Shown piece after piece: positions 1-11,696 of a stretch of 64,000 bases of DNA. This DNA is from a virus. The position numbers and the translations under genes are program-made. The stretch spans positions 1 through 64,000 of IMG/VR virus record IMGVR_UViG_3300009151_000053. One strand, 5' to 3'. Each line of letters begins with the position of its first letter. Positions within the stretch are counted from its first letter, which is position 1. The notes under the pieces are model-generated. The model was not told the origin of the DNA and did no database searches. It saw only the letters and a list, made by a program, of their open reading frames with translations.

Positions 1-11
1 AAGGAAAGATT

Positions 12-611
12 ATGCCCTCTGTATTTTTGACATCTGATACACACTTCGGTCATGCTGGAGTGTGTCGCTTTCTTACCAACACTGGTGAGAAGTTGCGCCC
101 ATGGGACAATCCAGATGATATGGACGAAGATATGGTGAAGCGGTGGAATGAAACCGTGAAGCCAAACGATAAGGTCTATCATCTTGGTGATGTTGTGATC
201 AACCGCAAGGCTCTGGCTATTATGCATCGCCTTAACGGTGATAAGGTGCTGATCAAGGGCAACCATGACATCTTTAAGTTGGATGATTATACGCAACACT
301 TCCGTGAGATTCGTGCATACCAGGTTATGGACGGTATGATTCTAAGTCATATCCCTATCCATGAAGCAAGTCTTGGAAGATTTGGCACGAACATCCACGG
401 ACATCTGCATAGCAATCGTGTGATGAAGGCCAACGGCTTTGACAAGAAAACTGGTCAAGTGCTGTATGGAAATCAGATCGATCCAAGATACATTAGCGTT
501 TGTGTAGAAGCCACAGACTTTCGTCCTATTTTATTTGAAGAAGTGAGGCAACGTATCATCGACCAAGGTGGAACTGTCGGATTTAAGAACGGAAACGGTC
601 CCACTATGTAA
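12..611 (+). CDS. Calcineurin-like metallophosphoesterase
   Basis: Motifs SDTHFGH, HLGDV, KGNHD, LSHIP and IHGHLH. Confidence 0.9.
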
Positions 612-1164
612 GGGTTCTGCCTCGAGTCCAATCAGGTCCGGGGCAGTCTTTTACTACTTTGTTGATATAGCCATTAGTCCACCAAATGGCACCAATGCGT
701 TTTGTTCCAATAAGTTGTTTAGTAGATTCGGATAACTTTTGACCTGTTTTACTTTTGCTACCTTTGGCATTTTGATTGCCTGTGGCACGAATCGATCTCG
801 CTTTACACATATCTTCTGTATATACAGTATTTTTTGCAAGTTGATTTCCTAACAAACGAATAGACGACTGATGTCTATGTTTAATCGATGGAATCCACCC
901 GGACACACCATCTCCTCCATCAGTTTTGTTATACAATATTCCAGAACTTAAATCTTTTCGTCCATACCAACGGATATATCTACGCTCTAATGCACATGCA
1001 CCAATATCTGATAAGTTCGTTTCTAAGAATATGATCTTTGATTTGTCTTTGGGAACAGACACATTATGTTGTGGTGAATATGCTCTGTTGCCTTTTCCTT
1101 TACCAATATAGTAAGGCGTTCCATCAGATTTTCTGACATAGGCATAGACGTAATAAATAAACAT
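604..1164 (-). mobile_element. Free-standing GIY-YIG homing endonuclease (Seg-like)
   Basis: N-terminal YVYAY...PYYIGKG..RAY, catalytic-type ALERRYI and YNKTDGG; basic NUMOD-like C-terminus; antisense to its neighbours; AAGGAG RBS. Confidence 0.85.
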
Positions 1165-1233
1165 TGCTGATACTCCTTGAAAGTGTTAGAGTCTGTGGAT
1201 ATTGACGTATCGTGACAGACACTTCTATTTATA
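1165..1233 (-). promoter_or_regulatory. T4-type late promoter plus structured leader of GIY-YIG gene 1
   Basis: TATAAATA on the minus strand at 1233-1226, then a GTCTGT/ACAGAC stem and TCTAACACTTTCAAGGAGTATCAGCA before the ATG; second copy at 2700-2771. Confidence 0.75.
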
Positions 1234-1259
1234 TTTTTCAGGAAACTACTAAATAATGA

Positions 1260-1382
1260 TTGCCATTCGCTCGGTATCATAGTATATTGAGTGAGTAAGC
1301 CGATGCGCTGAGGCTTAGAAGCGCCGTGAAACGTAGAGAACGGAATGCACGAAAGACATTCGCTGGATTGCGTAACCAGCAC
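1260..1382 (+). ncRNA. Candidate structured non-coding RNA, family not recognised
   Basis: Non-coding; lies between ACTAAATA (1248-1255) and TATAAATA (1384-1391); five adjacent stems and a possible pseudoknot. Confidence 0.5.
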
Positions 1383-1383
1383 T

Positions 1384-1391
1384 TATAAATA
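1384..1391 (+). promoter_or_regulatory. T4-type late promoter
   Basis: Exact TATAAATA upstream of the cell wall hydrolase gene. Confidence 0.7.
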
Positions 1392-1520
1392 GTATCTTAA
1401 CCAGATCGTAAAACGCGGTCTTTATTGAAAACACCCTACACACTTTTGTACGGTGGTTCTTCGCTCCCTATCCTATCAGTTTAGAGAAGAGAATGTTCGA
1501 AGACAAATAAAGGAAGAATA

Positions 1521-2075
1521 ATGACGAATGGATTCAAGCAATCTAAAACCCTTCAAGACATCTTTGTTGGTATTGCAATATCTCTCGCACTAACACTGAC
1601 TGTCCAACAAGTGTTCCATAGACCATCGGAACCAATAGTTATTGAAAGACAAGTTATCGTTAAAGTCCCAGTCTACCTAAGTGTGCAAGATAAGAAGCAG
1701 ATCAAGTGTCTTGCTGATAATGCATACTTTGAGGCTGGTAATCAAACAACAAGAGGAAAGATTGCCGTCACTAATGTCGTAATGAATAGGACAAGTGACG
1801 ATAGTTTTCCAAGTACTCCATGTGGAGTTGTCAAACAAAAGAAGCAAGGTCGTTGCCAGTTCTCATGGGTCTGTGAGAAGAAAAAGGTAGTTGACGTTGA
1901 TGTTTACACAGAAAGCAAACGAGTTGCCGAACAAGTTTATATCCAAAACATTGGAGATGTAACTGCTGGAGCAACGTTCTACCATGCCAATTGGATGAAA
2001 ACTTATCCTTTTTGGTCAAAGGTATTTAAGCAAACGGTAAAAATAGAAGATCATATATTTTATTCAGAATCATAA
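1521..2075 (+). CDS. SleB-like cell wall hydrolase (Hydrolase_2 family) with N-terminal membrane anchor
   Basis: CLADNAYFEA, AVTNVVMNR, CQFSW, GATFYHA and HIFY motifs; hydrophobic N-terminal segment. Confidence 0.9.
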   Translation: MTNGFKQSKTLQDIFVGIAISLALTLTVQQVFHRPSEPIVIERQVIVKVPVYLSVQDKKQIKCLADNAYFEAGNQTTRGKIAVTNVVMNRTSDDSFPSTPCGVVKQKKQGRCQFSWVCEKKKVVDVDVYTESKRVAEQVYIQNIGDVTAGATFYHANWMKTYPFWSKVFKQTVKIEDHIFYSES

Positions 2076-2699
2076 AGAACATTTATTTGATGTGATGTGT
2101 TGTCTGTAGTTTCCTGGATTAAAACCTTTGCCACATTTAGCACACACATTTTTATTTTGTTTTTGAAAATCACTTATGGCTTTCTTATGAAAATCTGTTC
2201 TCGGCGGTATTGTCTGTAGTTTTCTTTTATCTTTTATTTTGTTCTTTGTTTCTTGTGACATAGGTCTTCGTGCTGATGGATTTGGCACTCCTGTTTTAGT
2301 TTTTTTCATTTTCTCAATAACATCTTTAGGCCTTGGTTTTCCTAAACGAGATTCTTTGAGTTTTTGTTTTGTTTTTTCAGAACAAGGATGACCTTTCAAC
2401 CCCGTCTTTCCTTTATTCCAAGGTGTTCTTCCGGCAGCAGTTTCTCCACCGTCTGTCATATTTCTTAATATTCCAGTGTTATTATCTTTTCTTCCATACC
2501 AACGAATATATCTTCTTTCTAACGCAAGAGCGCCAAGTTCTGAAAGATTTCTTTCCATTATTATGATTCGTTCTTTTTCAGAAGGAAGATTTACTCTATG
2601 CTCGTTTGAATATGCTCTTTTGTTTTTACCTTTACCGATATAATAAGGCGTGTTATCTTTTCTAAGATAAGCATACACATAATAGACATAAATACTCAT
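2070..2699 (-). mobile_element. Free-standing GIY-YIG homing endonuclease with NUMOD3-like repeats
   Basis: [53 protein letters not shown] and a C-terminal CxxC; start placed at ATG 2699 because AAGGAG precedes it; AT-rich. Confidence 0.85.
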
Positions 2700-2771
2700 T
2701 GCTGATACTCCTTGCAAGTGTTAGAGTAGATGGAGTTCTGGGGAGTCCTCGCGATCTACATTCTATTTATA
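2700..2771 (-). promoter_or_regulatory. T4-type late promoter plus structured leader of GIY-YIG gene 2
   Basis: TATAAATA on the minus strand at 2771-2764, a GTAGAT/ATCTAC stem, then TCTAACACTTGCAAGGAGTATCAGCA. Confidence 0.75.
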
Positions 2772-2819
2772 AAAACTTGAAACCAACACCACATCTTTTA
2801 TAGAGAAGGCTAATACATC

Positions 2820-3065
2820 ATGGAAGAAATCGTACTAGAAAAGGCTCTATCGAGTGAAAAGTTTACAGCCGATATTGAAAATCTGATTGCACAACATAAA
2901 CTTAACTATGTTGATGCGGTCATTCATTATTGCAACATCAACAACATTGAAGTCGAAAGCGCAGCCACAATAATCAAGCAAAATCTTAAGATGAAGGCTC
3001 AACTAGAGTCTGAGTATGAGAGTCTTAACTATTTGCCAAAGCGGGCTAAACTGAACTTCGGATGA
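2820..3065 (+). CDS. 33: Late promoter transcription co-activator, T4 gp33-like
   Basis: F..DIE...LNYVDAVIHYC..NNIEVE...LNYLPK pattern; 81 aa; synteny 33-59-32. Confidence 0.85.
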   Translation: MEEIVLEKALSSEKFTADIENLIAQHKLNYVDAVIHYCNINNIEVESAATIIKQNLKMKAQLESEYESLNYLPKRAKLNFG

Positions 3066-3655
3066 GAGTTGCTATGACTCCCTTTGAGACTTACAAGACA
3101 TTCGTTGCTCTTAAGGCACACTTTGAGACCAATTATGATTATATTAAAAATAATGGTAATACAAAAAATATCACACAAGATGTCTTTAAACAGAGAAGAG
3201 ATGCCAACTTCTTTTACAAAATAGCCAGACATAAAGACTCGAAAAACTTTATGCTGGCTAACTTTGTTGGCAATTCTATTTCTTATGCTGGTGATCTAGC
3301 AACTGATAAAGCGGATGTTGTATATTCAGACTGGCTTAAGCGGCAGCAGGCTATTACATATATCTTTACTGAAGACTGCAATAAACTATTGACAAACTTC
3401 AATGAAAACTTTATAGTAAAGAGTGGGCAGAGACCACATGCATTGAAGTTATACTTACAGAAACAGATCAGTATTGAAACACTGATCATTTTGAATGACA
3501 TATGCAAGTTCTTTCCACATTGGAACAAGACAATCACTGAAACGATTATCTGGCCATCAATATATAAGAAGTGCATTAAATATAAACCGTTCTTTCGTTA
3601 TGACACTGCAAAGTGTAAACAGATCATGAGAGACATATTTACAGGTGATGAATGA
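3062..3655 (+). CDS. 59: DNA helicase loader, T4 gp59-like
   Basis: MTPFETYKTFVALKAHF..NYDY, ISIETLIIL and KYKPF motifs; synteny. Confidence 0.85.
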   Translation: MRVAMTPFETYKTFVALKAHFETNYDYIKNNGNTKNITQDVFKQRRDANFFYKIARHKDSKNFMLANFVGNSISYAGDLATDKADVVYSDWLKRQQAITYIFTEDCNKLLTNFNENFIVKSGQRPHALKLYLQKQISIETLIILNDICKFFPHWNKTITETIIWPSIYKKCIKYKPFFRYDTAKCKQIMRDIFTGDE

Positions 3656-4554
3656 CTGATTACTTTCAATACAATGTAGGACTGCCATCCAACCCTTTCA
3701 TGGATGCTCCTGCTCCTTTGTTCTCTGATAAAGAGACAGCGGATAAGATGGCTCGTGCAAAGCAAATCAATGACGACACTTTCTGGGCTTCTATGCGTGA
3801 AGTCTTTGCTAAAGACCTGGAAACGCTTCCTATGGAACGCTTCAAGGTCTGGGCTTCCACTATGACTGTTCCTATCATGAGTCGCAATCGGTTAACTGCT
3901 TATATGAAGATTGCTTTGGATGCTCTTGAACTTAAGGCAGTCGATGGACCCACTCGTACTGAGATTGCATTAACCGAACCCATGATTGGTATAACTGAAA
4001 AAGATTATCCAATCTATGCAGTCTTTGATGACTTCAAGACAACCATGAATCGTATCCAAGCATTCGCACATCTTAAAATCAATCGTATCTCTGCTGCTGA
4101 CCTTGAGCGTATGGACACAATCGTTGAACTTGGCGGTGGTGTTGGTGATATGGCTGATGTTGTCTACAAGTTGGGATTCAAGGGTAAGTATATCATCTAT
4201 GACTTCCCTGAACTTGGTAAGATTCAAAAGTGGTATCACGATGAACTTGGGTTGACAAACGTGGTACATACTGATAATATTAATGATCTGGTAGACGCTG
4301 ATCTATGCATCGCTACTTGGTCATTGACCGAAATGCCTATGGATTTGAGAGATCAGATTGTAGACAAGATCGGGAATACGAAGAATTGGCTCATTGCCTA
4401 TTCTAATGAAATCTTCGGATTTGATAACGATAAATACATCCGTGAGAACTTGCTTCCACGGTTCAAAGTCGGCTATGATACAGAGTTTACCGATGTACCA
4501 TATATGGCTTGGGATGGTGGCACCAAGTATGTCACGATCAAACAAAACACATAA
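3652..4554 (+). CDS. Putative SAM-dependent sugar O-methyltransferase
   Basis: IVELGGGVG SAM-binding motif, YIIYDFPE and DLCIATWSLTEM. Confidence 0.65.
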   Translation: MTDYFQYNVGLPSNPFMDAPAPLFSDKETADKMARAKQINDDTFWASMREVFAKDLETLPMERFKVWASTMTVPIMSRNRLTAYMKIALDALELKAVDGPTRTEIALTEPMIGITEKDYPIYAVFDDFKTTMNRIQAFAHLKINRISAADLERMDTIVELGGGVGDMADVVYKLGFKGKYIIYDFPELGKIQKWYHDELGLTNVVHTDNINDLVDADLCIATWSLTEMPMDLRDQIVDKIGNTKNWLIAYSNEIFGFDNDKYIRENLLPRFKVGYDTEFTDVPYMAWDGGTKYVTIKQNT

Positions 4555-4589
4555 TCATACACTTAACATAAACATACAAGGAAATAAAA

Positions 4590-5489
4590 ATGTCATTTGC
4601 AGACCTAAAGCGTACTTCTTCCAGCAACTTTGAAAAGTTGAACCAAGAACTTTCAAAGATGAACACAAAGTCATACAATGATGACGACAAGGATAAGTAC
4701 TGGTACCCAGACACCGACAAGGTTGGTAACGGCTATGCTGTTATTCGGTTCTTGCCACCAGCAGAAGGCGAAGATATTCCATTCGTCCGCATCTGGGACC
4801 ACAGTTTCAAGAATCCAGATACTGGACAGTGGTATATCGAGAAGTCGCTATCGACTCTTGGTAAGGCTGATCCGCTCGGCGAGTATAACTCAAAGTTGTG
4901 GAACTCTGGTATTGACTCTGATAAGGAAATCGCTCGCCTTCAGAAGCGCCGTTTGACCTTTGTCTCTAACATCTATATCATCAAGGATGGTGCTAATCCT
5001 GAAAACGAAGGAAAGGTCAAACTCTTTAAGTATGGTAAGAAGGTGTTCGACAAGTTGAATGATGCAATGAACCCACAGTTTGATGATGAAAAGCCAATGA
5101 ACCCATTTGACTTCTGGGCTGGCGCGAACTTCAAGTTGAAGATTCGTCAAGTCGAAGGCTATCGTAACTACGATAAGTCCGAGTTTGATGCAGTTGGTGC
5201 ATTGTTTGAAGATGACTCTAAGTTGGAAACAATCTGGAAGCAAGAGCAATCTCTACAGGCTCTGATCGATCCTAAGGTCTTCAAGACCTACGAGCAACTT
5301 CAGGCTCGTCTCAATCTGGTGTTGGGTAAGACCAAGACTGTGGCTGAGACACGGAATAGTTTTGTCGAAGATGATTATGTAGCACCTGCGCCTGCGGCTA
5401 AGGCTGCTCCCGCAAAGGCTATTGCGTCAACTGATGACGATGATGACGACGGGCTAGAGTTCTTCAAGCGACTCGCTGAAGAGGACTAA
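4590..5489 (+). CDS. 32: Single-stranded DNA-binding protein, T4 gp32-like
   Basis: GNGYAVIRFLP, WYIEKS, YGKKVFDK, GANFKLKIR..EGYRNYDKSEF and an acidic C-terminal tail. Confidence 0.95.
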   Translation: MSFADLKRTSSSNFEKLNQELSKMNTKSYNDDDKDKYWYPDTDKVGNGYAVIRFLPPAEGEDIPFVRIWDHSFKNPDTGQWYIEKSLSTLGKADPLGEYNSKLWNSGIDSDKEIARLQKRRLTFVSNIYIIKDGANPENEGKVKLFKYGKKVFDKLNDAMNPQFDDEKPMNPFDFWAGANFKLKIRQVEGYRNYDKSEFDAVGALFEDDSKLETIWKQEQSLQALIDPKVFKTYEQLQARLNLVLGKTKTVAETRNSFVEDDYVAPAPAAKAAPAKAIASTDDDDDDGLEFFKRLAEED

Positions 5490-5495
5490 AACTAG

Positions 5496-5525
5496 AGGGG
5501 AGAGTTTCGGCTCTCCCCTTTTTTT
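5496..5525 (+). terminator. Intrinsic terminator between convergent genes
   Basis: AGGGGAGAG-TTTCGG-CTCTCCCCT stem with a UUCG-type loop, followed by a T-run directly after gene 32. Confidence 0.9.
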
Positions 5526-7032
5526 ATGCTGTGCCGAAATACATATGATATCCAGAAGAAGGATCATGATATGCTGGAGGCGGAACATTCTTTCCATTGC
5601 CTGCCATCATTCTTGGGCTTGATCCAGTTCCCGATTTTCCTGTGGCAGCGGTTTGAGTTGTCTGCTTCTTAACGATAGGCTTTTGTGTCTGAGACAGAGC
5701 AACATCATTAGATGCCATCGCTACTTTAGGAGTTTCAGCAGGAGATGGTTTTCCTTTAGGACCGTCATCAACAGCAAGAAGAACTTTGCGTTCTTCTTCA
5801 ACTCGTTTGGCAACACCCGCTCTAGTCTTATCATCACTACTCTTGAATCTTGTTGAAACAGTGCTGGATTTGTAATCTTGAATAGCATTGATTATTTCTT
5901 TATCAGACATAGATTTGGTATCTTTGCCTTTTAATGCTTTTTGTATGACACTTGTGTTCGCGCCATATTGATTGGCTGTACTGAAGATTGCTTCTTGCAC
6001 ACCAGCACCACGACCAGATAAATCTATGCCCGCTTTTTGTAATTTTGCAACTTGTGGATTATAATGAGTCTTAGCAGCATGTGCTTGTTGAGCGGCGCCA
6101 AACTCTTTAGTCTTTCCTAGTTCCTTCCACTTAGCATCAAACTCTTTTGACCCAACTTCCATACCAGCAAACTGTTTGGAATATCCACTTTCTTTTAGAA
6201 ACTTTTGAACATCGCCTGTTTTAGATGACAGTTGGAATTTGCCGTAACTTTTTCCACCAGCATCGCCTTTGCCAGTTGACACAGTTCCTGATTTACCGCC
6301 ACTCTCAAAGAATGCAGCAACTTTACCAAGACCTTCACCAACACCTTTGCCAATAGCAGTCGCGCCTTCACCAACTTTTTCAGCAGCCTGTTTACCAACA
6401 GCAACCGCACCTTCACCAACCTGTTTACCAACAGCAACCGCTTTCTTAGCGCCCTCTTTTACTTTGCCACCAAGGTGTCCAAAAAACTCTTTGATTGAAT
6501 CAATGATGTTCTGGAACTTTTCAGAAACAACAGCAAATCCATCTTTGATGTTTTGGATCGCAGTCTTTATGCTATTGACTATAGGACCTATAAGATGCAT
6601 TGCACCTAGTACGGCAAACTTGATGCCCTCTCTGATCGCTTTATCTAAGAAACCTTCTTTACCTTTTTCTTTTTTATCGCCTTCTTCGCCATCTTTGGGA
6701 ACTTTGTCTGCGTGTTTTTCTTGTGCATTCTCTGTTGCTAAACGATTTGCTTGTAACGATTGGTCTTTTTGAAGATTCATTGAATCTTGTAAAGTTGTAT
6801 CAATAGATTTGGCGCGACTTAAGATAGATTTGATCAGACCTGTGTTACTGGCTGATGGAGATGATATGCTTTGTTCCGATGATGTGTCAGAAATAGCAGA
6901 ATACGGAACAGTCTTACCAGCAGGAAGAGGCATAGGAACAGACATTTGAGCACGGATTTGCTCCATTGCTTTAGGAGAAAACCCTGCTGCCTCTAAAACT
7001 TCCGGCGATTTATATACTGTAGGTAGTCCCAT
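5524..7032 (-). CDS. Tape-measure-position (gp29-like) tail protein with lysozyme-like peptidoglycan hydrolase domain
   Basis: Follows gp26/gp51; helical Ala/Gly/Lys repeats; ESGG..GTVSTGKGDAGGKSYGKFQL motif resembling the VgrG3 C-terminal muramidase domain. Confidence 0.6.
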   Translation of the reverse strand: MGLPTVYKSPEVLEAAGFSPKAMEQIRAQMSVPMPLPAGKTVPYSAISDTSSEQSISSPSASNTGLIKSILSRAKSIDTTLQDSMNLQKDQSLQANRLATENAQEKHADKVPKDGEEGDKKEKGKEGFLDKAIREGIKFAVLGAMHLIGPIVNSIKTAIQNIKDGFAVVSEKFQNIIDSIKEFFGHLGGKVKEGAKKAVAVGKQVGEGAVAVGKQAAEKVGEGATAIGKGVGEGLGKVAAFFESGGKSGTVSTGKGDAGGKSYGKFQLSSKTGDVQKFLKESGYSKQFAGMEVGSKEFDAKWKELGKTKEFGAAQQAHAAKTHYNPQVAKLQKAGIDLSGRGAGVQEAIFSTANQYGANTSVIQKALKGKDTKSMSDKEIINAIQDYKSSTVSTRFKSSDDKTRAGVAKRVEEERKVLLAVDDGPKGKPSPAETPKVAMASNDVALSQTQKPIVKKQTTQTAATGKSGTGSSPRMMAGNGKNVPPPAYHDPSSGYHMYFGTA

Positions 7033-7158
7033 TTAGGTCTCTTCTATTATTTGTTTTTGTTTGTTTAAGAAGTCAAGAAGCATATCAACATATAGATCAC
7101 GTTCATAGGGCATGAGATTTTCTAAATCTGTTATTGAATATTTATGATGCTGAACCAT
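7033..7158 (-). CDS. 51: Baseplate hub assembly catalyst, gp51-like (absent from the ORF track; probably also made as a frameshift fusion)
   Basis: Hand translation MVQHHKYSITDLENLMPYERDLYVDMLLDFLNKQKQIIEET matches the gp51-like MQHHKYS..E.E...P.ER..YV pattern; the frame stays open upstream into gp26. Confidence 0.8.
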   Translation of the reverse strand: MVQHHKYSITDLENLMPYERDLYVDMLLDFLNKQKQIIEET

Positions 7159-7199
7159 TGAGAAAATCACGGTATAATAATTACTAAGACTAGTATGAC

Positions 7200-7913
7200 T
7201 CAGCCCAAGGTAAAAAAATCACGGAGCGTATCCAACACAATCTCTCTGTCATTATCAAGTGAGTTTTTATATTTGATCGTGTAGATAAGTTTTGGTGTGT
7301 TATCAATGAACTCTTTTACTTTCTCAAAACTTTTGGTATCGATGCTATCGATAAAGGTCTGGAGTTCTTCATCGGTATGTTCATATACAGGATAAACAGT
7401 TTCTTCATCATAAATCTCAACAATACATTTCTTAACAAAGAAATTCAAAACATCATCCAATCCATCTTCTAGATCGTCTGCTTCATCAAATACTGATGCT
7501 GTTGGATGCTTCATAATCATACCAATACCATTACCAAGTTGAATATTGTTATCGATGGCTTTTGGGCGAGTAACTTGGACTTCTTCTAGATCGATCTTAA
7601 ATGTATATTCTTTTTCATCTTCTCTATCTTTGTATTTGACTTCAATGATATTGTTGACCGACCGTGATCTTAGTTTTAAGAAGATGAATTCGATGTCCGT
7701 CATGGTAAGACTGTCAATATCCAAATCTTCTGAGATACAACAGTTATTGATTATCTGTTTAATAGACTTGAGAATATCTCTATTGCTATCCGATTGTTGG
7801 GCCATCAATAGAATCTTTTCCTCTTTGACAAGGAAAGGCCTAAACTCATAAGTCTTGTTGAATGAAGGAATTTCAATTTCAAATATTGGAGATTGGATTT
7901 TTGGTAAAGCCAT
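7200..7913 (-). CDS. 26: Baseplate hub subunit, T4 gp26-like
   Basis: MALPKI..P, FRPFLVKEEKILLMA, DIEFIFLKLRSRSV and a C-terminal DFF. Confidence 0.9.
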   Translation of the reverse strand: MALPKIQSPIFEIEIPSFNKTYEFRPFLVKEEKILLMAQQSDSNRDILKSIKQIINNCCISEDLDIDSLTMTDIEFIFLKLRSRSVNNIIEVKYKDREDEKEYTFKIDLEEVQVTRPKAIDNNIQLGNGIGMIMKHPTASVFDEADDLEDGLDDVLNFFVKKCIVEIYDEETVYPVYEHTDEELQTFIDSIDTKSFEKVKEFIDNTPKLIYTIKYKNSLDNDREIVLDTLRDFFTLG

Positions 7914-7915
7914 GA

Positions 7916-8779
7916 TTATTTTCCTTTGGTTGCAGTATCGTCCGCAGATGTTTCAATAGTGAGATATGTATATTTGATAGTTGTTGTGAACTTCATCATA
8001 TCTCCATTACCAGAATCTAAGTTAATAGGATTTGTGGATTCTGGGTATGCATCAAACAGTGTGACTTTGGTTTTTCTGTTGTTGTTGTAATCATACACAT
8101 ATATTTGCATTTGCTTACAGATGTAGTCATCTTTATATGTTAGTTCAAATGGCATATTGCCGCCTGCAGGTGCCATGCCTTTTGACACGTCATAGTTTAT
8201 GATGTGATTTGTCCATTTATTAAAATAGTCGATCACTTTGGTTTCTCTATCAACAACGAATGTCAATGCTATACTGTCAAACTTGACACCATATGGGCGT
8301 TGTTCTCTAACACCATATCCATATCTGAAGATATCCATGTTATTAAAAGACATTCCAGGCAAAACAACATTTTCACATCTCAATGTCAAAAACTCGTTTC
8401 TTAAATCAAAATACTGATTTGTCATAGGATCATTGGCAAAAATAAGTGGTCGAGGCATTACTACCAAAAATCTATTTGTTGGTAGAATGCCGTTCTCGTT
8501 TATTTCTGTTCTGAAGTTTTGTATATCAAAAGAAGTTTTTTGTGCAATATTAGGATTTGGAACAGATTTTAAATTCTGTATTTCTTGTTGTGTTGATATT
8601 GCTTTTTTGTTAATCGGATCATACGGCTTACCCGTTTGAGGATTAAGTCTTTGAGAATCGCTCATGTTATACTTAGAAGCGTCTTCTATTGATCGAGTTG
8701 CGAAATCTTTAGAAGCAGCAAGACGCGCTCTGTCCGCCGACAGTTCTTCATCTGATGAAATCAATCCAAATAATGCCAT
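7916..8779 (-). CDS. Tail-tube-fold protein (gp54/gp19-like tube initiator)
   Basis: NRFLV, LRCENVVLPG, YKDDY and LFDAYP motifs; position between gp2 and gp26. Confidence 0.7.
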   Translation of the reverse strand: MALFGLISSDEELSADRARLAASKDFATRSIEDASKYNMSDSQRLNPQTGKPYDPINKKAISTQQEIQNLKSVPNPNIAQKTSFDIQNFRTEINENGILPTNRFLVVMPRPLIFANDPMTNQYFDLRNEFLTLRCENVVLPGMSFNNMDIFRYGYGVREQRPYGVKFDSIALTFVVDRETKVIDYFNKWTNHIINYDVSKGMAPAGGNMPFELTYKDDYICKQMQIYVYDYNNNRKTKVTLFDAYPESTNPINLDSGNGDMMKFTTTIKYTYLTIETSADDTATKGK

Positions 8780-8842
8780 TACCCTCTAACCTTCTTCTTG
8801 TCTCTTAGTTGTTCTATTTTTGCTTCTAGAAAGTAGATTTAT

Positions 8843-8869
8843 TATAAATATCATCATACTCTATTTATA
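8843..8869. promoter_or_regulatory. Face-to-face pair of late promoters
   Basis: TATAAATA on + at 8843-8850 (towards the HNH gene) and on - at 8869-8862 (towards the tail-tube-like gene). Confidence 0.65.
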
Positions 8870-8881
8870 AAGGTTACTCCA

Positions 8882-9442
8882 ATGATTCATAAACATCATA
8901 TTATTCCCAAGCATATGGGCGGCACAGACGACACAGATAATCTTATTGAATTGAGTGTTGAAGAACATGCAGAAGCGCATAGAATGCTTTATGAACAACA
9001 TGAAAGAAAAGAAGATTATCTCGCTTGGAAAGGATTATCTGGACAAATTGATAAAGAAGAAATATTAAAAGAAATATATGTAAAAAATGGAAAAAAATTA
9101 GGTAAAAAAAATATAGGAAGAATTCCTTGGAATAAAGGATTAACAAAATCAGATCCAAGAATTAAAGCGAGTGCTGATAAAATGTGTAAACCAAAAACAG
9201 AAAAACATAAACAAGCACTGCGTAAACCAAAATCAGATAAAGGTAATATAGGAAAATACGAAAGAACGGATGAAACAAAACAAAAACTGAGAGAAGCGAA
9301 TGTTTTACGGTTTAATGAAGAAGGTCGCAAAAAACACTCGGAAATAATAAAAAACAATAGAAGAAAATGCAGTTATTGTGATATGGTATCAAATGTATCA
9401 AACATAACCAGACACGAAAAGAAATGTCCTAAATCTGTCTGA
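8882..9442 (+). mobile_element. Free-standing HNH homing endonuclease (Mob-like)
   Basis: HKHHIIPKHMGGTDD..NLIELSVEEHAEAH, PWNKG, NUMOD3-like repeats and a C-terminal Zn knuckle; very A-rich; antisense to the operon. Confidence 0.85.
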
Positions 9443-10025
9443 TTTTTTTCTTGCTATCAGCCCAAACCTGTGATGTGGTTGCTTTTTCAAACCTGGCTGT
9501 AGGAAGCATCAGGGCAATATCCCATTCAGATGGATACACATACATCATCTTTGATCTAACATGGCTTGTCAGGTAGTGCTTGATGCATGGAGAGAAATAT
9601 TTCAGAGTTGACACTTTAGATAGCAGTTCATAGTTCAGTTTCAGTTTGGTTGATTCATCATATCTGCTATTGTTTGCATATTCATACAGCCCATCCATCA
9701 ACTTCGCTCTGAGTTGTGGTGGCAGATAGTGCAGATTCAATCCTAGAAAGCCGCCTGGAATCTTCTTGAATGGAAAGATCAGTGGAAATCTGTCATAGAA
9801 TGGCAGTGTGTCTTTGTGCTTTGGATCGTAATAGAACATGTACATCTGTCCAGGCAACGGCTCTTTCTGGAGCCTGTCTTTATCAGAGTTCAACAATGAT
9901 CGTTCGTTGATGCTACTGATCTTGCCAGCAGTTGTACGAAACCAATCACGCGCCTCTTTAGTCCGCGCTGGAATCTGTCCAGAACGAACGCCTTTAGTGA
10001 TGATTGTATCAAATACATTTGCCAT
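9429..10025 (-). CDS. 2: DNA end protector protein, T4 gp2-like
   Basis: GQMYMFYYDPKHKDTLPFYDRFPL, GLNLHYLP, CIKHYL and VWADS. Confidence 0.92.
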   Translation of the reverse strand: MANVFDTIITKGVRSGQIPARTKEARDWFRTTAGKISSINERSLLNSDKDRLQKEPLPGQMYMFYYDPKHKDTLPFYDRFPLIFPFKKIPGGFLGLNLHYLPPQLRAKLMDGLYEYANNSRYDESTKLKLNYELLSKVSTLKYFSPCIKHYLTSHVRSKMMYVYPSEWDIALMLPTARFEKATTSQVWADSKKKIRQI

Positions 10026-10474
10026 TAACGAGCGATTCCTAGTTCTACTTCAGTTATAATCTCAAACTTCCATTTGCGTTCTTTGCAGTAGTTACTACAT
10101 GCAGCCCACTTAGCACTATTTATACCCCATGTTTGGACTTCTGTAATATATTTGCGAGTTGCTTTGGTCTGAACTTTAGGCGGTGCACACTGGACTTTAG
10201 GCTTAATCTCGACTACAGTAGTCTCAATCAATCCTTCAGGCGTTCTCTTCTTGATCACGAAATCTGGAAAGTATCTGTGAATCTTATTGTCTATTGGAGA
10301 CTTGTAAGGGATAGCCAACTCTTCACTTGACCACTTGATAACATTTGGATGACCGTCTAGATAACTCATGAACTTGAGTTCCCATCTTGATCTGTAGACA
10401 ATATTACTCGGATCGCCGAGATACTTCTCAGGATGAAATGGTTTAAACTTTCCTTTGTGTGTTTTGTAAGCCAT
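10025..10474 (-). CDS. 4: Head completion nuclease, T4 gp4-like (TnsA-like fold)
   Basis: KYLGDPSNIVYRSRWE, WSSEE..IPY.SP.D...HRYFPDF, EIKP and N.AKW.A. Confidence 0.92.
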   Translation of the reverse strand: MAYKTHKGKFKPFHPEKYLGDPSNIVYRSRWELKFMSYLDGHPNVIKWSSEELAIPYKSPIDNKIHRYFPDFVIKKRTPEGLIETTVVEIKPKVQCAPPKVQTKATRKYITEVQTWGINSAKWAACSNYCKERKWKFEIITEVELGIAR

Positions 10475-10478
10475 GGAT

Positions 10479-10492
10479 TATTTATATAAATA
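10479..10492. promoter_or_regulatory. Overlapping divergent late promoters
   Basis: TATTTATATAAATA gives TATAAATA on - (10486-10479) and on + (10485-10492), at the strand switch between gene 4 and gene 48. Confidence 0.8.
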
Positions 10493-10517
10493 AAAGAAAC
10501 TCTTGTTAAGGCATCAG

Positions 10518-11696
10518 ATGACCGATTTCTTCAAAAAAATTGTAATCAATCCATTAGAAAAAATGGTAAAAAACAATATCAGCGGATACATCAACAAAGC
10601 AGAGAATGCTTTGATCGATGCTGTTGGTGATAGTTTGGGCAGACTTGGATTAAGTTCAAATAGCAGAAACAAATATTTAGCGGCTCTTGGCGATTCTATT
10701 CTATCTGGTATTGCTAGTGAGTTCTTCGGCGCTTTTAATGGAGAACTCGACAGAATAACAAAAAAAGATATCATTAAAAATACAGGCTTTGCTGCCACTG
10801 ATTCTATTGGTGATACGCTTTCGCAGCCATCCACAATCAACAATCTTCATTATCCAGCAGACTTGAACAAGTATTACGTATCATTCGCATTCAAAGCATA
10901 TGAAAGACCAACACCATTTTACCCCGTACAAAAAATAGAAAAAGATTCTATCTCTCTGCCATTGCCAAGAGATTTGATTGAGAGTCATGAAGTTGATTAT
11001 AACAGTGGCACTACTGGAATGGCGGGGTCTGTTTTCAATGGTGTTCCTTCTGCTGCTGAAGGCTTGAGTGGAAACACAGTTGGCCAAGCAGGCATCGCCG
11101 CTGCTGCATATGGTGTAGAGACTGCTGCATCATTACTTGGTAACGATTTCTTAATGTCTCTTCAACAAGCGGCAGGCGCGGTTGCAAACCCAAATATCGC
11201 AACTGTGTTCAAGTCTCCTAAAATGCGGTCACATAAGTTCTCATGGACCTTTGCTCCTAATAACGAAAGTGAAAGCAGAACCATTCGAGATATTATCAAA
11301 AGATTTAAGCAGAGTGCATTACCAAAAGTATTCTCGGATACAACTGCTGCATTAGCATTTCCTGATATGTGCCAGGTAACATTGCACCCATGGGGAAATG
11401 GAAACTGGAATCCAAATACAGGATATGATGATTCTTACATGTATGTCTTTAAGACTTGCGTGATCGAATCTGTGAGTGTCAACTATGCGCCAGAACTGCC
11501 AGCATTCTTTGCATCTAAAGGTGCGGGACCGGCACCAGGGTTTATCACATTGTCAATCGCTTTATTAGAGGTCGAATACTTCACTGCAAACGATTATGGT
11601 GTGGCTAAACAAGGTGCGGGAGAAGTGGTATTAGGAAATCTGAAGACCACATTGAATACATTAACAGGTTCAACCACAACAGGAACTGGAGCATAA
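10518..11696 (+). CDS. 48: Baseplate tail tube cap, T4 gp48-like
   Basis: ISLPLP, NPN...FKSP..RSHKFSWTFAPNNESES..I..IIK.FK and CVIESVSVNYAP; ATG at 10518 chosen as start. Confidence 0.8.
   Translation: MTDFFKKIVINPLEKMVKNNISGYINKAENALIDAVGDSLGRLGLSSNSRNKYLAALGDSILSGIASEFFGAFNGELDRITKKDIIKNTGFAATDSIGDTLSQPSTINNLHYPADLNKYYVSFAFKAYERPTPFYPVQKIEKDSISLPLPRDLIESHEVDYNSGTTGMAGSVFNGVPSAAEGLSGNTVGQAGIAAAAYGVETAASLLGNDFLMSLQQAAGAVANPNIATVFKSPKMRSHKFSWTFAPNNESESRTIRDIIKRFKQSALPKVFSDTTAALAFPDMCQVTLHPWGNGNWNPNTGYDDSYMYVFKTCVIESVSVNYAPELPAFFASKGAGPAPGFITLSIALLEVEYFTANDYGVAKQGAGEVVLGNLKTTLNTLTGSTTTGTGA

Follow-up and report, generated by a model that had tools for sequence, protein, structure and literature searches.

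Free-standing homing endonucleases are usually described as residents of intergenic DNA. Here we analyse three putative genes of this kind, two GIY-YIG genes (Seg#1 and Seg#2) and one HNH gene, lying in the first 10.5 kb of a 64,000-nucleotide (nt) stretch of DNA from a T4-like freshwater phage, positions 1 to 64,000 of the IMG/VR record IMGVR_UViG_3300009151_000053 (hereafter, the window). Comparison with alleles that lack them indicates that they are very probably homing-endonuclease cassettes inserted backwards at the 3' boundaries of resident genes, two of them swapping the tail of the gene that they enter.

The closest architectural precedent is the C-terminal swap by mobile open reading frame elements (mORFs) of fungal mitochondria, which bring a foreign C-terminus to atp6 of Allomyces macrogynus, to atp6, atp9, cox2 and nad3 of Glomus sp., to atp9 of Rhizopus and to cox2 of Mortierella (PMC3630166). 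In both systems a gene body is followed by an inserted foreign C-terminus, an endonuclease open reading frame (ORF) and a remnant of the native C-terminus, the gene staying intact with no intron or intein (PMC3630166); in both, the native remnant matches close relatives and the divergent inserted terminus moves with the endonuclease. The fungal endonucleases, however, are encoded in the same sense as the gene, often in frame with it or downstream of it, are mostly of the LAGLIDADG family and reside in an organelle, whereas the cassettes described here belong to a double-stranded DNA phage, carry antisense GIY-YIG or HNH genes with a private late promoter, and have 3' nuclease codons that are read as the end of the resident gene.

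In phages, the Seg and Mob enzymes of T4 spread by intronless homing with co-conversion (PMC2988022). SegF, SegG, SegB and MobE resemble the elements of the window in being free-standing GIY-YIG or HNH genes between conserved genes, in their presence/absence polymorphism and in the co-conversion of flanks (PMC2988022, PMC2790892, PMC2330249), as well as in their middle or late promoters with regulatory hairpins and their NUMOD3 and zinc-finger DNA-binding tails. They differ in being intergenic, or in overlapping an upstream ORF with their 5' end, and no displaced orphan tail has been described for them. All T4 homing endonuclease genes except segD are oriented like their neighbours, and segD has no recognisable promoter of its own (PMC2988022). 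Like the genes studied here, segD is a GIY-YIG gene running against its flanking late genes, 23 and 24, but it is truly intergenic, separated by 50 nt from the end of gene 23 and by 90 nt from the start of gene 24, and has neither an overlap nor a recoded terminus.

Bonocora et al. (2011) reportedly described mobA of T4 together with the bypass element of gene 60, and Friedrich et al. (2007) are said to have described the splitting of nrdA by mobE in Aeh1 ("genes in pieces"). These cases share with ours an insertion in a coding region, a gene that is kept functional and an alteration thought to be self-protective; they reportedly involve two expressed pieces or a translational bypass, whereas here only the extreme 3' end is exchanged and the piece left behind does not code. 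Full-text literature searches did not return a description of this layout for phages.

Empty and occupied alleles

The record is an uncultured 82-kb contig from freshwater metagenomes with an estimated completeness of 48%. From the left, the plus strand encodes a phosphoesterase, a SleB/CwlJ-type cell-wall hydrolase, gp33, gp59, a methyltransferase-like gene and gp32, with Seg#1 on the minus strand between phosphoesterase and hydrolase and Seg#2 on the minus strand between hydrolase and gp33. The minus strand of the first 10.5 kb further encodes a lysozyme-like protein, gp51, gp26, a tail-tube-like gene (7916-8779) and gp2 (9429-10025), beyond which lies gp4, and the plus-strand HNH ORF (8882-9442) separates the tail-tube-like gene from gp2. 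No GenBank phage matched positions 1-10500 at the DNA level (megablast), and the nearest annotated relatives are distant: Sinorhizobium phage phiM12 and its kin (57% amino acid identity in gp2), phage C48C1 and Stenotrophomonas phage DLP_6.

The preliminary description of this DNA had claimed that the three endonuclease genes run antisense to their operons, overlap the stop region of a convergent resident gene and have late promoters of their own. This holds throughout the window, where each of the three is antisense to both its neighbours. The phosphoesterase (12-611, plus) and Seg#1 (604-1164, minus) overlap by 8 nt, the hydrolase (1521-2075, plus) and Seg#2 (2070-2699, minus; true start ATG at 2699 rather than TTG at 2717) by 6 nt, and the HNH gene (8882-9442, plus) and gp2 (9429-10025, minus) by 14 nt. 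An exact TATAAATA late promoter lies upstream of every one, at 1226-1233 (minus) for Seg#1, 2764-2771 (minus) for Seg#2 and 8843-8850 (plus) for the HNH gene; the window holds 11 such sites against 5.2 expected.

The alignment to cassette-free relatives that had been proposed as a check did define the empty sites. Contigs from X4, a sequencing run of an independent freshwater metagenome study, lack all three cassettes in flanks that are 94-97% identical to the window, so that each site is polymorphic among close relatives for the presence of its cassette; two IMG/VR loci, L023 and L005, provide further empty alleles for the HNH gene. An occupied Seg#2 allele came from X2, a run of a third study. 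Joints with a side <30 in the contig alignments were disregarded as unreliable. In X4 record 25, window positions 189-609, 19 nt, 1277-1989, 54 nt and 2788-3126 follow one another, and in X4 record 26 positions 9448-10570 are joined directly to 8794-8669. Each cassette measures about 650-710 nt and includes its T4-type late promoter. The C-terminal swap layout, consisting of substitute end, nuclease ORF and native remnant, is present at hydrolase/Seg#2 and gp2/HNH and not at phosphoesterase/Seg#1. A repeat search found no DNA-level repeats of gene ends; it is uninformative, as the duplicated pieces are only 6-26 nt long or diverged.

The features of the gp2 locus are as follows.

7916-8779, minus strand: tail-tube-like gene (gp19.2-like), the downstream partner of gp2; Pfam Phage_TTP_2 and T4_gp19
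8779-8799, minus strand: orphan native gp2 tail, KKKVRG-stop; 24/24 nt equal to the L005 empty-site junction, 23/24 to that of L023
8795-9447, plus strand: HNH cassette, 653 nt; no counterpart in X4 record 26, L023 or L005
9429-9447, minus strand: new gp2 terminus, (K)KIRQI-stop; antisense of the last HNH codons (C-P-K-S-V-stop)
9448-10025, minus strand: native body of gp2 (DNA end protector); 57% amino acid identity to phiM12 gp2, 96% amino acid and 88-95% nt identity to L023

The gene order gp4-gp2-gp19.2-gp26 is kept in phiM12, C48C1 and 30 IMG/VR loci. In phiM12 and C48C1, both cassette-free, the tail-tube-like gene starts immediately after the gp2 stop, and the window gp2 aligns colinearly with theirs to the final residue; the HNH gene was found in none of the 34 IMG/VR relatives fetched. 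The two closest empty alleles, L023 (96% amino acid identity over gp2 residues 83-196) and L005 (81%), both end gp2 in VWADSKKKVRG-stop with AGAGGNTAATG, the stop overlapping the next ATG. The window gp2 agrees with them through GATAGCAAGAA and thereafter reads AAAAATCAGACAGATTTAG (KKIRQI-stop). Beyond the HNH gene the minus strand resumes with the empty-site junction, GACAAGAAGAAGGTTAGAGGGTAATGGCATTA, in which 24 nt are identical to L005, so that the native KKKVRG-stop with its TAATG stop/start junction is kept at 8799-8777, directly before the tail-tube-like gene, and the orphan includes the Shine-Dalgarno sequence of that gene.

In X4 record 26, the tract 10570-9448 (94%) runs into 8794-8669 (97%) with zero extra letters. 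Together with L023 and L005, this joint places the cassette at 8795-9447, inserted five codons before the original gp2 stop; the hexanucleotide CAAGAA is present at both of its edges. The HNH stop codon coincides in position with the first gp2 codon that is not native, and the gp2 stop falls just past the HNH codon for the final zinc-finger cysteine, from which it follows that the five new gp2 codons are the antisense of a dispensable HNH tail (P-K-S-V-stop). Both the insertion a few codons before the stop and the antisense-recoded end that had been proposed for gp2 are thus supported by the 9448/8794 joint. Among relatives the last 3-4 residues of gp2 vary freely. The cassette carries two facing late promoters, one at 8843-8850 (plus) for the HNH gene and the other at 8862-8869 (minus), directed outward toward the tail-tube-like gene.

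At the hydrolase, the exchanged tract is longer.

1521-1989, plus strand: native hydrolase body (Hydrolase_2 / SleB-CwlJ type); Pfam PF07486, E=4.9e-22; 95% identical to the X4 empty allele
1990-2075, plus strand: replacement foreign 3' end of the hydrolase, about 28 codons, ending HIFYSES-stop; not alignable to X4 at 85% or more
2070-2787, minus strand: Seg#2 cassette, with ORF 2070-2699, structured leader 2700-2763, late promoter 2764-2771 and a spacer to the orphan
2788-2813, plus strand: orphan native hydrolase tail, (H)HIFYREG-stop; contiguous with the hydrolase ORF in X4 and carrying the gp33 Shine-Dalgarno sequence

About 80 IMG/VR loci keep the order hydrolase-gp33-gp59-gp32, and in all 26 of the closer cassette-free relatives (26/26) the hydrolase ends in HIFYR(G)-stop, 3-12 nt before the gp33 ATG. 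The window hydrolase ends in EDHIFYSES-stop. Past the cassette, positions 2788-2813 read CAC CAC ATC TTT TAT AGA GAA GGC TAA, with HIFYREG-stop at 2790-2813, 6 nt before gp33 (ATG at 2820). The protein homologues P0003 (88%) and P0004 (86%), the closest to the window hydrolase, end in KIGDHIFYREG-stop, the same as the orphan, and the P0006 terminus is identical too; the two orphan C-termini noted in the preliminary description, HIFYREG and KKKVRG, both match the termini of cassette-free relatives. Amino acid identity of the hydrolase to P0002-P0004 is 91-93% over residues 1-156 and 61-67% over the last 18 residues (167-184). X4 record 25, with 54 nt between 1277-1989 (95%) and 2788-3126 (95%), indicates that 1990-2787, comprising the 86-nt substitute end and the cassette, replaces those 54 nt and that the orphan continues the native ORF; the joint at 1989/1990 gives the best boundary of the replaced tract.

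The layout of hydrolase, Seg gene, orphan and gp33 recurs in a second occupied phage, L205. Its hydrolase ends in ESHIFYSDS-stop and overlaps the nuclease by 16 nt, and its orphan, GCA CAC ATT TTT TAC AGA GGC TAA (AHIFYRG-stop), lies 5 nt before gp33. Between L205 and the window, amino acid identity is 74% for the nuclease (Seg#2), as against 49% for the hydrolase, 44% for gp33, 39% for gp59 and 57% for the methyltransferase. At the DNA level, window and L205 have an identity of 0.70-0.95 between 1953 and about 2780, against 0.40-0.60 elsewhere; within the substitute hydrolase end it climbs from about 0.55 to 0.72-0.77. The hydrolase tails of both phages share the derived features FK, IE and YSxS, missing from all cassette-free homologues, while the L205 hydrolase body is only 47% identical. 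In X2, occupied contigs are 99.5% identical to the window over 1900-2602, and the contig with the hydrolase body (1531-1921) is 94% identical. The identity patterns of L205 and X2 imply that the substitute hydrolase 3' end moves with the Seg#2 cassette. This end shares only its final two codons with the Seg#2 ORF; the claim that the cassette entered the hydrolase ORF, stranded its tail and left the gene intact thus stands, whereas the new ending is, judging from these alignments, better described as a foreign C-terminus carried along than as one recoded on the antisense strand.

With respect to L205 (3100-3140), a 1-nt indel at 2070-2110 shortens the Seg#2 C-terminus (KCSL-stop as compared with KCFYESE-stop) and thereby leaves 6 nt of the 16-nt antisense overlap with the hydrolase. 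The hydrolase motif WMKTYP, considered as cassette-specific, was withdrawn, as P0002 and P0003 have it together with native REG/RES tails. Other insertions in relatives at hydrolase/gp33, gp33/gp59 and gp59/gp32 contain no nucleases and consist of sense-oriented methyltransferase-like or unknown genes next to native tails. The hydrolase-gp33-gp59-gp32 interval is an insertion hot spot, with sense-oriented genes that differ between the window (3652-4554), L054, L058, L060 and L078.

The third cassette left the terminus of its resident gene unchanged.

12-611, plus strand: metallophosphoesterase gene with its native GNGPTM terminus retained; Pfam Metallophos_2, PHROG phosphoesterase
610 to about 1257, minus strand: Seg#1 cassette, about 648 nt, with ORF 604-1164, structured leader 1165-1225 and late promoter 1226-1233
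1258-1520, plus strand: resident intergenic region outside any cassette, about 95% identical in X4, with the hydrolase late promoter TATAAATA at 1384-1391

Eighty relatives (70-82% identity) align with the phosphoesterase over residues 1-199, and about 50 of the 80 end in GNGPTM like the window, as does the X4 empty allele; the proposal that this terminus, too, had been recoded is not supported, cassette-free relatives with the present ending being what was named in advance as refuting it. In X4 record 25, position 609 (the T of the stop) is linked to 1277 by 19 nt, 13 of which match window 1258-1276 (13/19). This joint places the cassette at 610 to about 1257, within the stop codon and after its first base; the TGA of the empty allele has become TAA, with no residue altered, and no phosphoesterase orphan tail was found in 1165-1520. 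The last codon and stop of Seg#1 (609-604) are read from resident DNA. At this site the roles are reversed, the resident gene supplying the ending of the nuclease. A single insertion strategy for GIY-YIG and HNH genes, as formerly proposed, thus fits Seg#2 at the hydrolase and the HNH gene at gp2, but not Seg#1, which entered a stop codon.

The viral contig L119 (333 kb; phosphoesterase 82%) has an antisense GIY-YIG gene of another subfamily at the identical position, with the same 8-nt overlap. It is split in two, with ORFs at 4593-4913 and 5002-5232, and is probably decaying. The approximately 260 nt of non-coding DNA at 1258-1520, about 95% conserved in the cassette-free X4 relative, have no Rfam match.

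Nuclease domains and expression signals

All three nuclease ORFs are intact, and PHROG annotates each as "homing endonuclease". Seg#1 and Seg#2 are paralogous and have repeated sequence in common. In their N-terminal domain YVY...PYYIGKG, R28, the catalytic glutamate E61 and N80 are invariant in 11 homologues, while the Pfam GIY-YIG profile (PF01541) matches below its gathering threshold (best E=0.013-0.026; 15.3 bits, cut-off 22.6). Searched against PDB sequences, a profile of the Seg family reached a GIY-YIG entry at E=0.0055, and phmmer with Seg#2 returned only a spurious C2H2 zinc-finger match. An AlphaFold model of the domain shows the beta-beta-alpha-beta-alpha fold of GIY-YIG nucleases and has a predicted local distance difference test score (pLDDT) of 74-91 over residues 1-70; its ten best structural alignments in the PDB are all to GIY-YIG proteins (PD-T4-3, UvrC, I-TevI), with Z of 5.7-7.5 and a root-mean-square deviation of about 2.8 Å over 70-73 residues, and the Foldseek E-values are weak (0.16-1). 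The HNH ORF scores 20.6 bits against Pfam PF01844 (cut-off 21.4; only profile positions 9-34 of 47), 25.5 bits in a six-frame search that includes four codons upstream of the ATG, and E=6.9e-16 against PHROG 655, "homing endonuclease". A C-terminal CxxC...H...C finger is found in Seg#2, the HNH protein and the nucleases of L119, L166 and L205.

Between late promoter and AAGGAG ribosome-binding site, the Seg cassettes contain a leader with a 6-bp stem (window 1165-1233 and 2700-2771, minus strand), which recurs in L119 (5175-5275), L166 (1747-1847) and L205 (2410-2503). The stem covaries (GTAGAT/ATCTAC, GTAGTT/AACTAC, GTCTGT/ACAGAC), and RNAalifold finds compensatory changes in 5 of 12 pairs. 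Common to GIY-YIG cassettes of two subfamilies and to an HNH cassette, in unrelated contigs, the leader resembles a portable module for nuclease gene expression. An Rfam scan of 1-11000 gave no match, and terminator and sigma-70 scans near the junctions gave nothing exceeding shuffles. At 10479-10492, between gp4 and a baseplate gene starting at 10503, two exact TATAAATA boxes overlap in divergent orientation.

Mobility, proposed mechanism and alternatives

Better conservation of the cassette than of its flanks is clear for Seg#2 (74% against 39-57% in L205; 99.5% against 94% in X2) and suggestive only for the HNH gene and Seg#1. The cassettes also sit at mosaic breaks. Against L023, gp2 is 88-95% identical but the tail-tube-like gene only 31-56%; in the comparison with X4, the tail-tube-like gene is 97% identical over its first 126 nt (8669-8794) and less than 85% over the remainder (7916-8668). 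At Seg#1, the phosphoesterase (189-609) is 86% identical to X4 and the right side (1277-1989) 95%.

The coupled pairs gp2/tail-tube-like gene (TAATG) and hydrolase/gp33 (6 nt) offer no intergenic space, and there the cassette lies in the reading frame itself, upstream of the ribosome-binding site of the next gene. The displaced native tail remains as a non-coding orphan that still gives the downstream gene its Shine-Dalgarno sequence and start context; as the orphans do hold an AGAGG Shine-Dalgarno sequence and this context, there is a simple reason for the insertion point and for orphan retention. The resident gene is closed by a substitute ending travelling with the cassette, at gp2 five codons that are the antisense of the nuclease's own end and at the hydrolase a foreign 3' end of about 28 codons, and the third cassette has entered the phosphoesterase stop codon with the residues unchanged. 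In the mechanism that we propose, the cassettes would spread by intronless homing, in which repair of a double-strand break co-converts the flanks, the orphan and the downstream gene probably serving as the right homology arm, and occupied genomes would be protected by an altered or split target. The backward orientation and private late promoter may confine nuclease expression to late infection, and the outward promoter of the HNH cassette may restore transcription of the downstream tail genes. Going further, we tentatively suggest that the antisense tail swap could be a selected, recurrent route of invasion into coupled operons, combining a dual-coding nuclease end, tail-borne immunity, a stranded native tail retained as ribosome-binding site and right homology arm, rewired late promoters and a leader portable between GIY-YIG and HNH genes.

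Several observations weigh against parts of this interpretation. A fourth GIY-YIG gene with NUMOD3 lies in the same record outside the window, at about 65637-66374 (L223:1120-1857); it is sense-oriented, between two structural genes, and its stop overlaps the next start (ATGA), so that the antisense arrangement of all three genes is true of the window only. Among 20 loci with related nucleases the ORF was found in 19, and in 13 of these 19 both called neighbours are on the strand of the nuclease; backward orientation is no family trait of these nucleases. (A convergent overlap in L209, between a Seg relative and a desaturase-like gene, was rejected as a further case, being simply a strand switch.) As the phosphoesterase keeps its native terminus, the three cases differ in detailed mechanism. 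The new gp2 tail KIRQI resembles the old KVRG and could be the diverged tail of a donor gp2 instead of "free" antisense coding. Searches of IMG/VR and the JGI metagenomes turned up no second full-length copy of the HNH gene, only relatives that match its N-terminal 60-70 residues and of which none adjoins gp2; the mobility of the gene is consequently argued from presence and absence only. In addition, the X4 and X2 sequences are Logan contigs seen only through alignment to the window, and we infer homing and immunity from comparative signatures alone.

The arrangement could be an incidental by-product, ordinary homing endonuclease genes having landed in ORF ends merely for want of intergenic space and survived where they chanced on a nearby stop, with orphans that persist solely as carriers of the next ribosome-binding site and an antisense overlap that has no selected function. 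We consider this a possible, though on balance unlikely, account. The freely varying end of gp2 implies that almost any short tail is tolerated, the orphans overlap the AGAGG of the next gene, the phosphoesterase case requires no recoding, and related nucleases elsewhere are mostly sense-oriented. A mere by-product fits less well with a replacement hydrolase tail conserved along with its cassette between hydrolase bodies as diverged as those of the window and L205, with nuclease ORFs that each stop 2-6 residues past the last zinc-finger cysteine, exactly at the resident stop, and with the outward promoter of the HNH cassette. It is improbable that the genes are no active homing endonucleases but decayed or domesticated ones, with a role in regulation or defence, passively inherited after a single illegitimate arrival: the GIY-YIG Pfam scores fall under the gathering threshold, the HNH gene has no close homologue elsewhere in IMG/VR or the JGI metagenomes and the L119 nuclease is split in two, yet none of the three ORFs is disrupted, their catalytic motif residues are invariant, presence/absence polymorphism separates genomes with flanks 94-97% identical, the flanks show identity gradients resembling co-conversion, and leader and promoter are conserved, with covariation.

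It is still less probable, indeed very improbable, that the occupied state is ancestral and the relatives lost their cassettes through deletion between short repeated tails. Repeats that could mediate such a deletion, CAAGAA (6 nt) and CAYATHTTTTAY (at least 12 nt), do flank two of the cassettes, but native tails without cassettes occur in dozens of diverse relatives (phiM12, C48C1, the 30 gp2 loci and about 80 hydrolase loci), the cassette is much better conserved than its flanks in L205 and X2, which points to recent lateral movement, and the replacement hydrolase tail is derived relative to the family consensus. That chimeric metagenome assembly produced the cassettes or orphans is hardly credible. 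The record is an uncultured contig of limited completeness, and Seg#1 and Seg#2 share repeated sequence; however, contigs that Logan assembled independently from the probable source run match 1-2508 and 2484-10600 with 0 mismatches, across all cassette junctions, which excludes mis-assembly, and the same occupied junctions appear in X2 and the same layout in L205. Mobile cassettes inserted backwards at 3' gene boundaries thus remain the interpretation that we favour.

Implications for phage genomes

The empty and occupied alleles, resolved to the base pair, reveal how nuclease genes can enter gene pairs that have no intergenic DNA, needing neither intron nor intein, and provide a phage counterpart of the mitochondrial C-terminal swap. 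They also predict cut sites, at the native junction GATAGCAAGAA/GAAGGTTAGAGG in gp2 and in the HIFYREG region of the hydrolase. Nuclease genes have been proposed as boundary markers of genetic exchange between phages (PMC10448857), and the cassettes at identity breaks offer a clean natural example of this. Finally, the layout yields an annotation signature, a backward nuclease gene followed, past its promoter, by a short copy of its neighbour's last codons, which can be searched for across phages and would flag chimeric gene ends that distort phylogenies.

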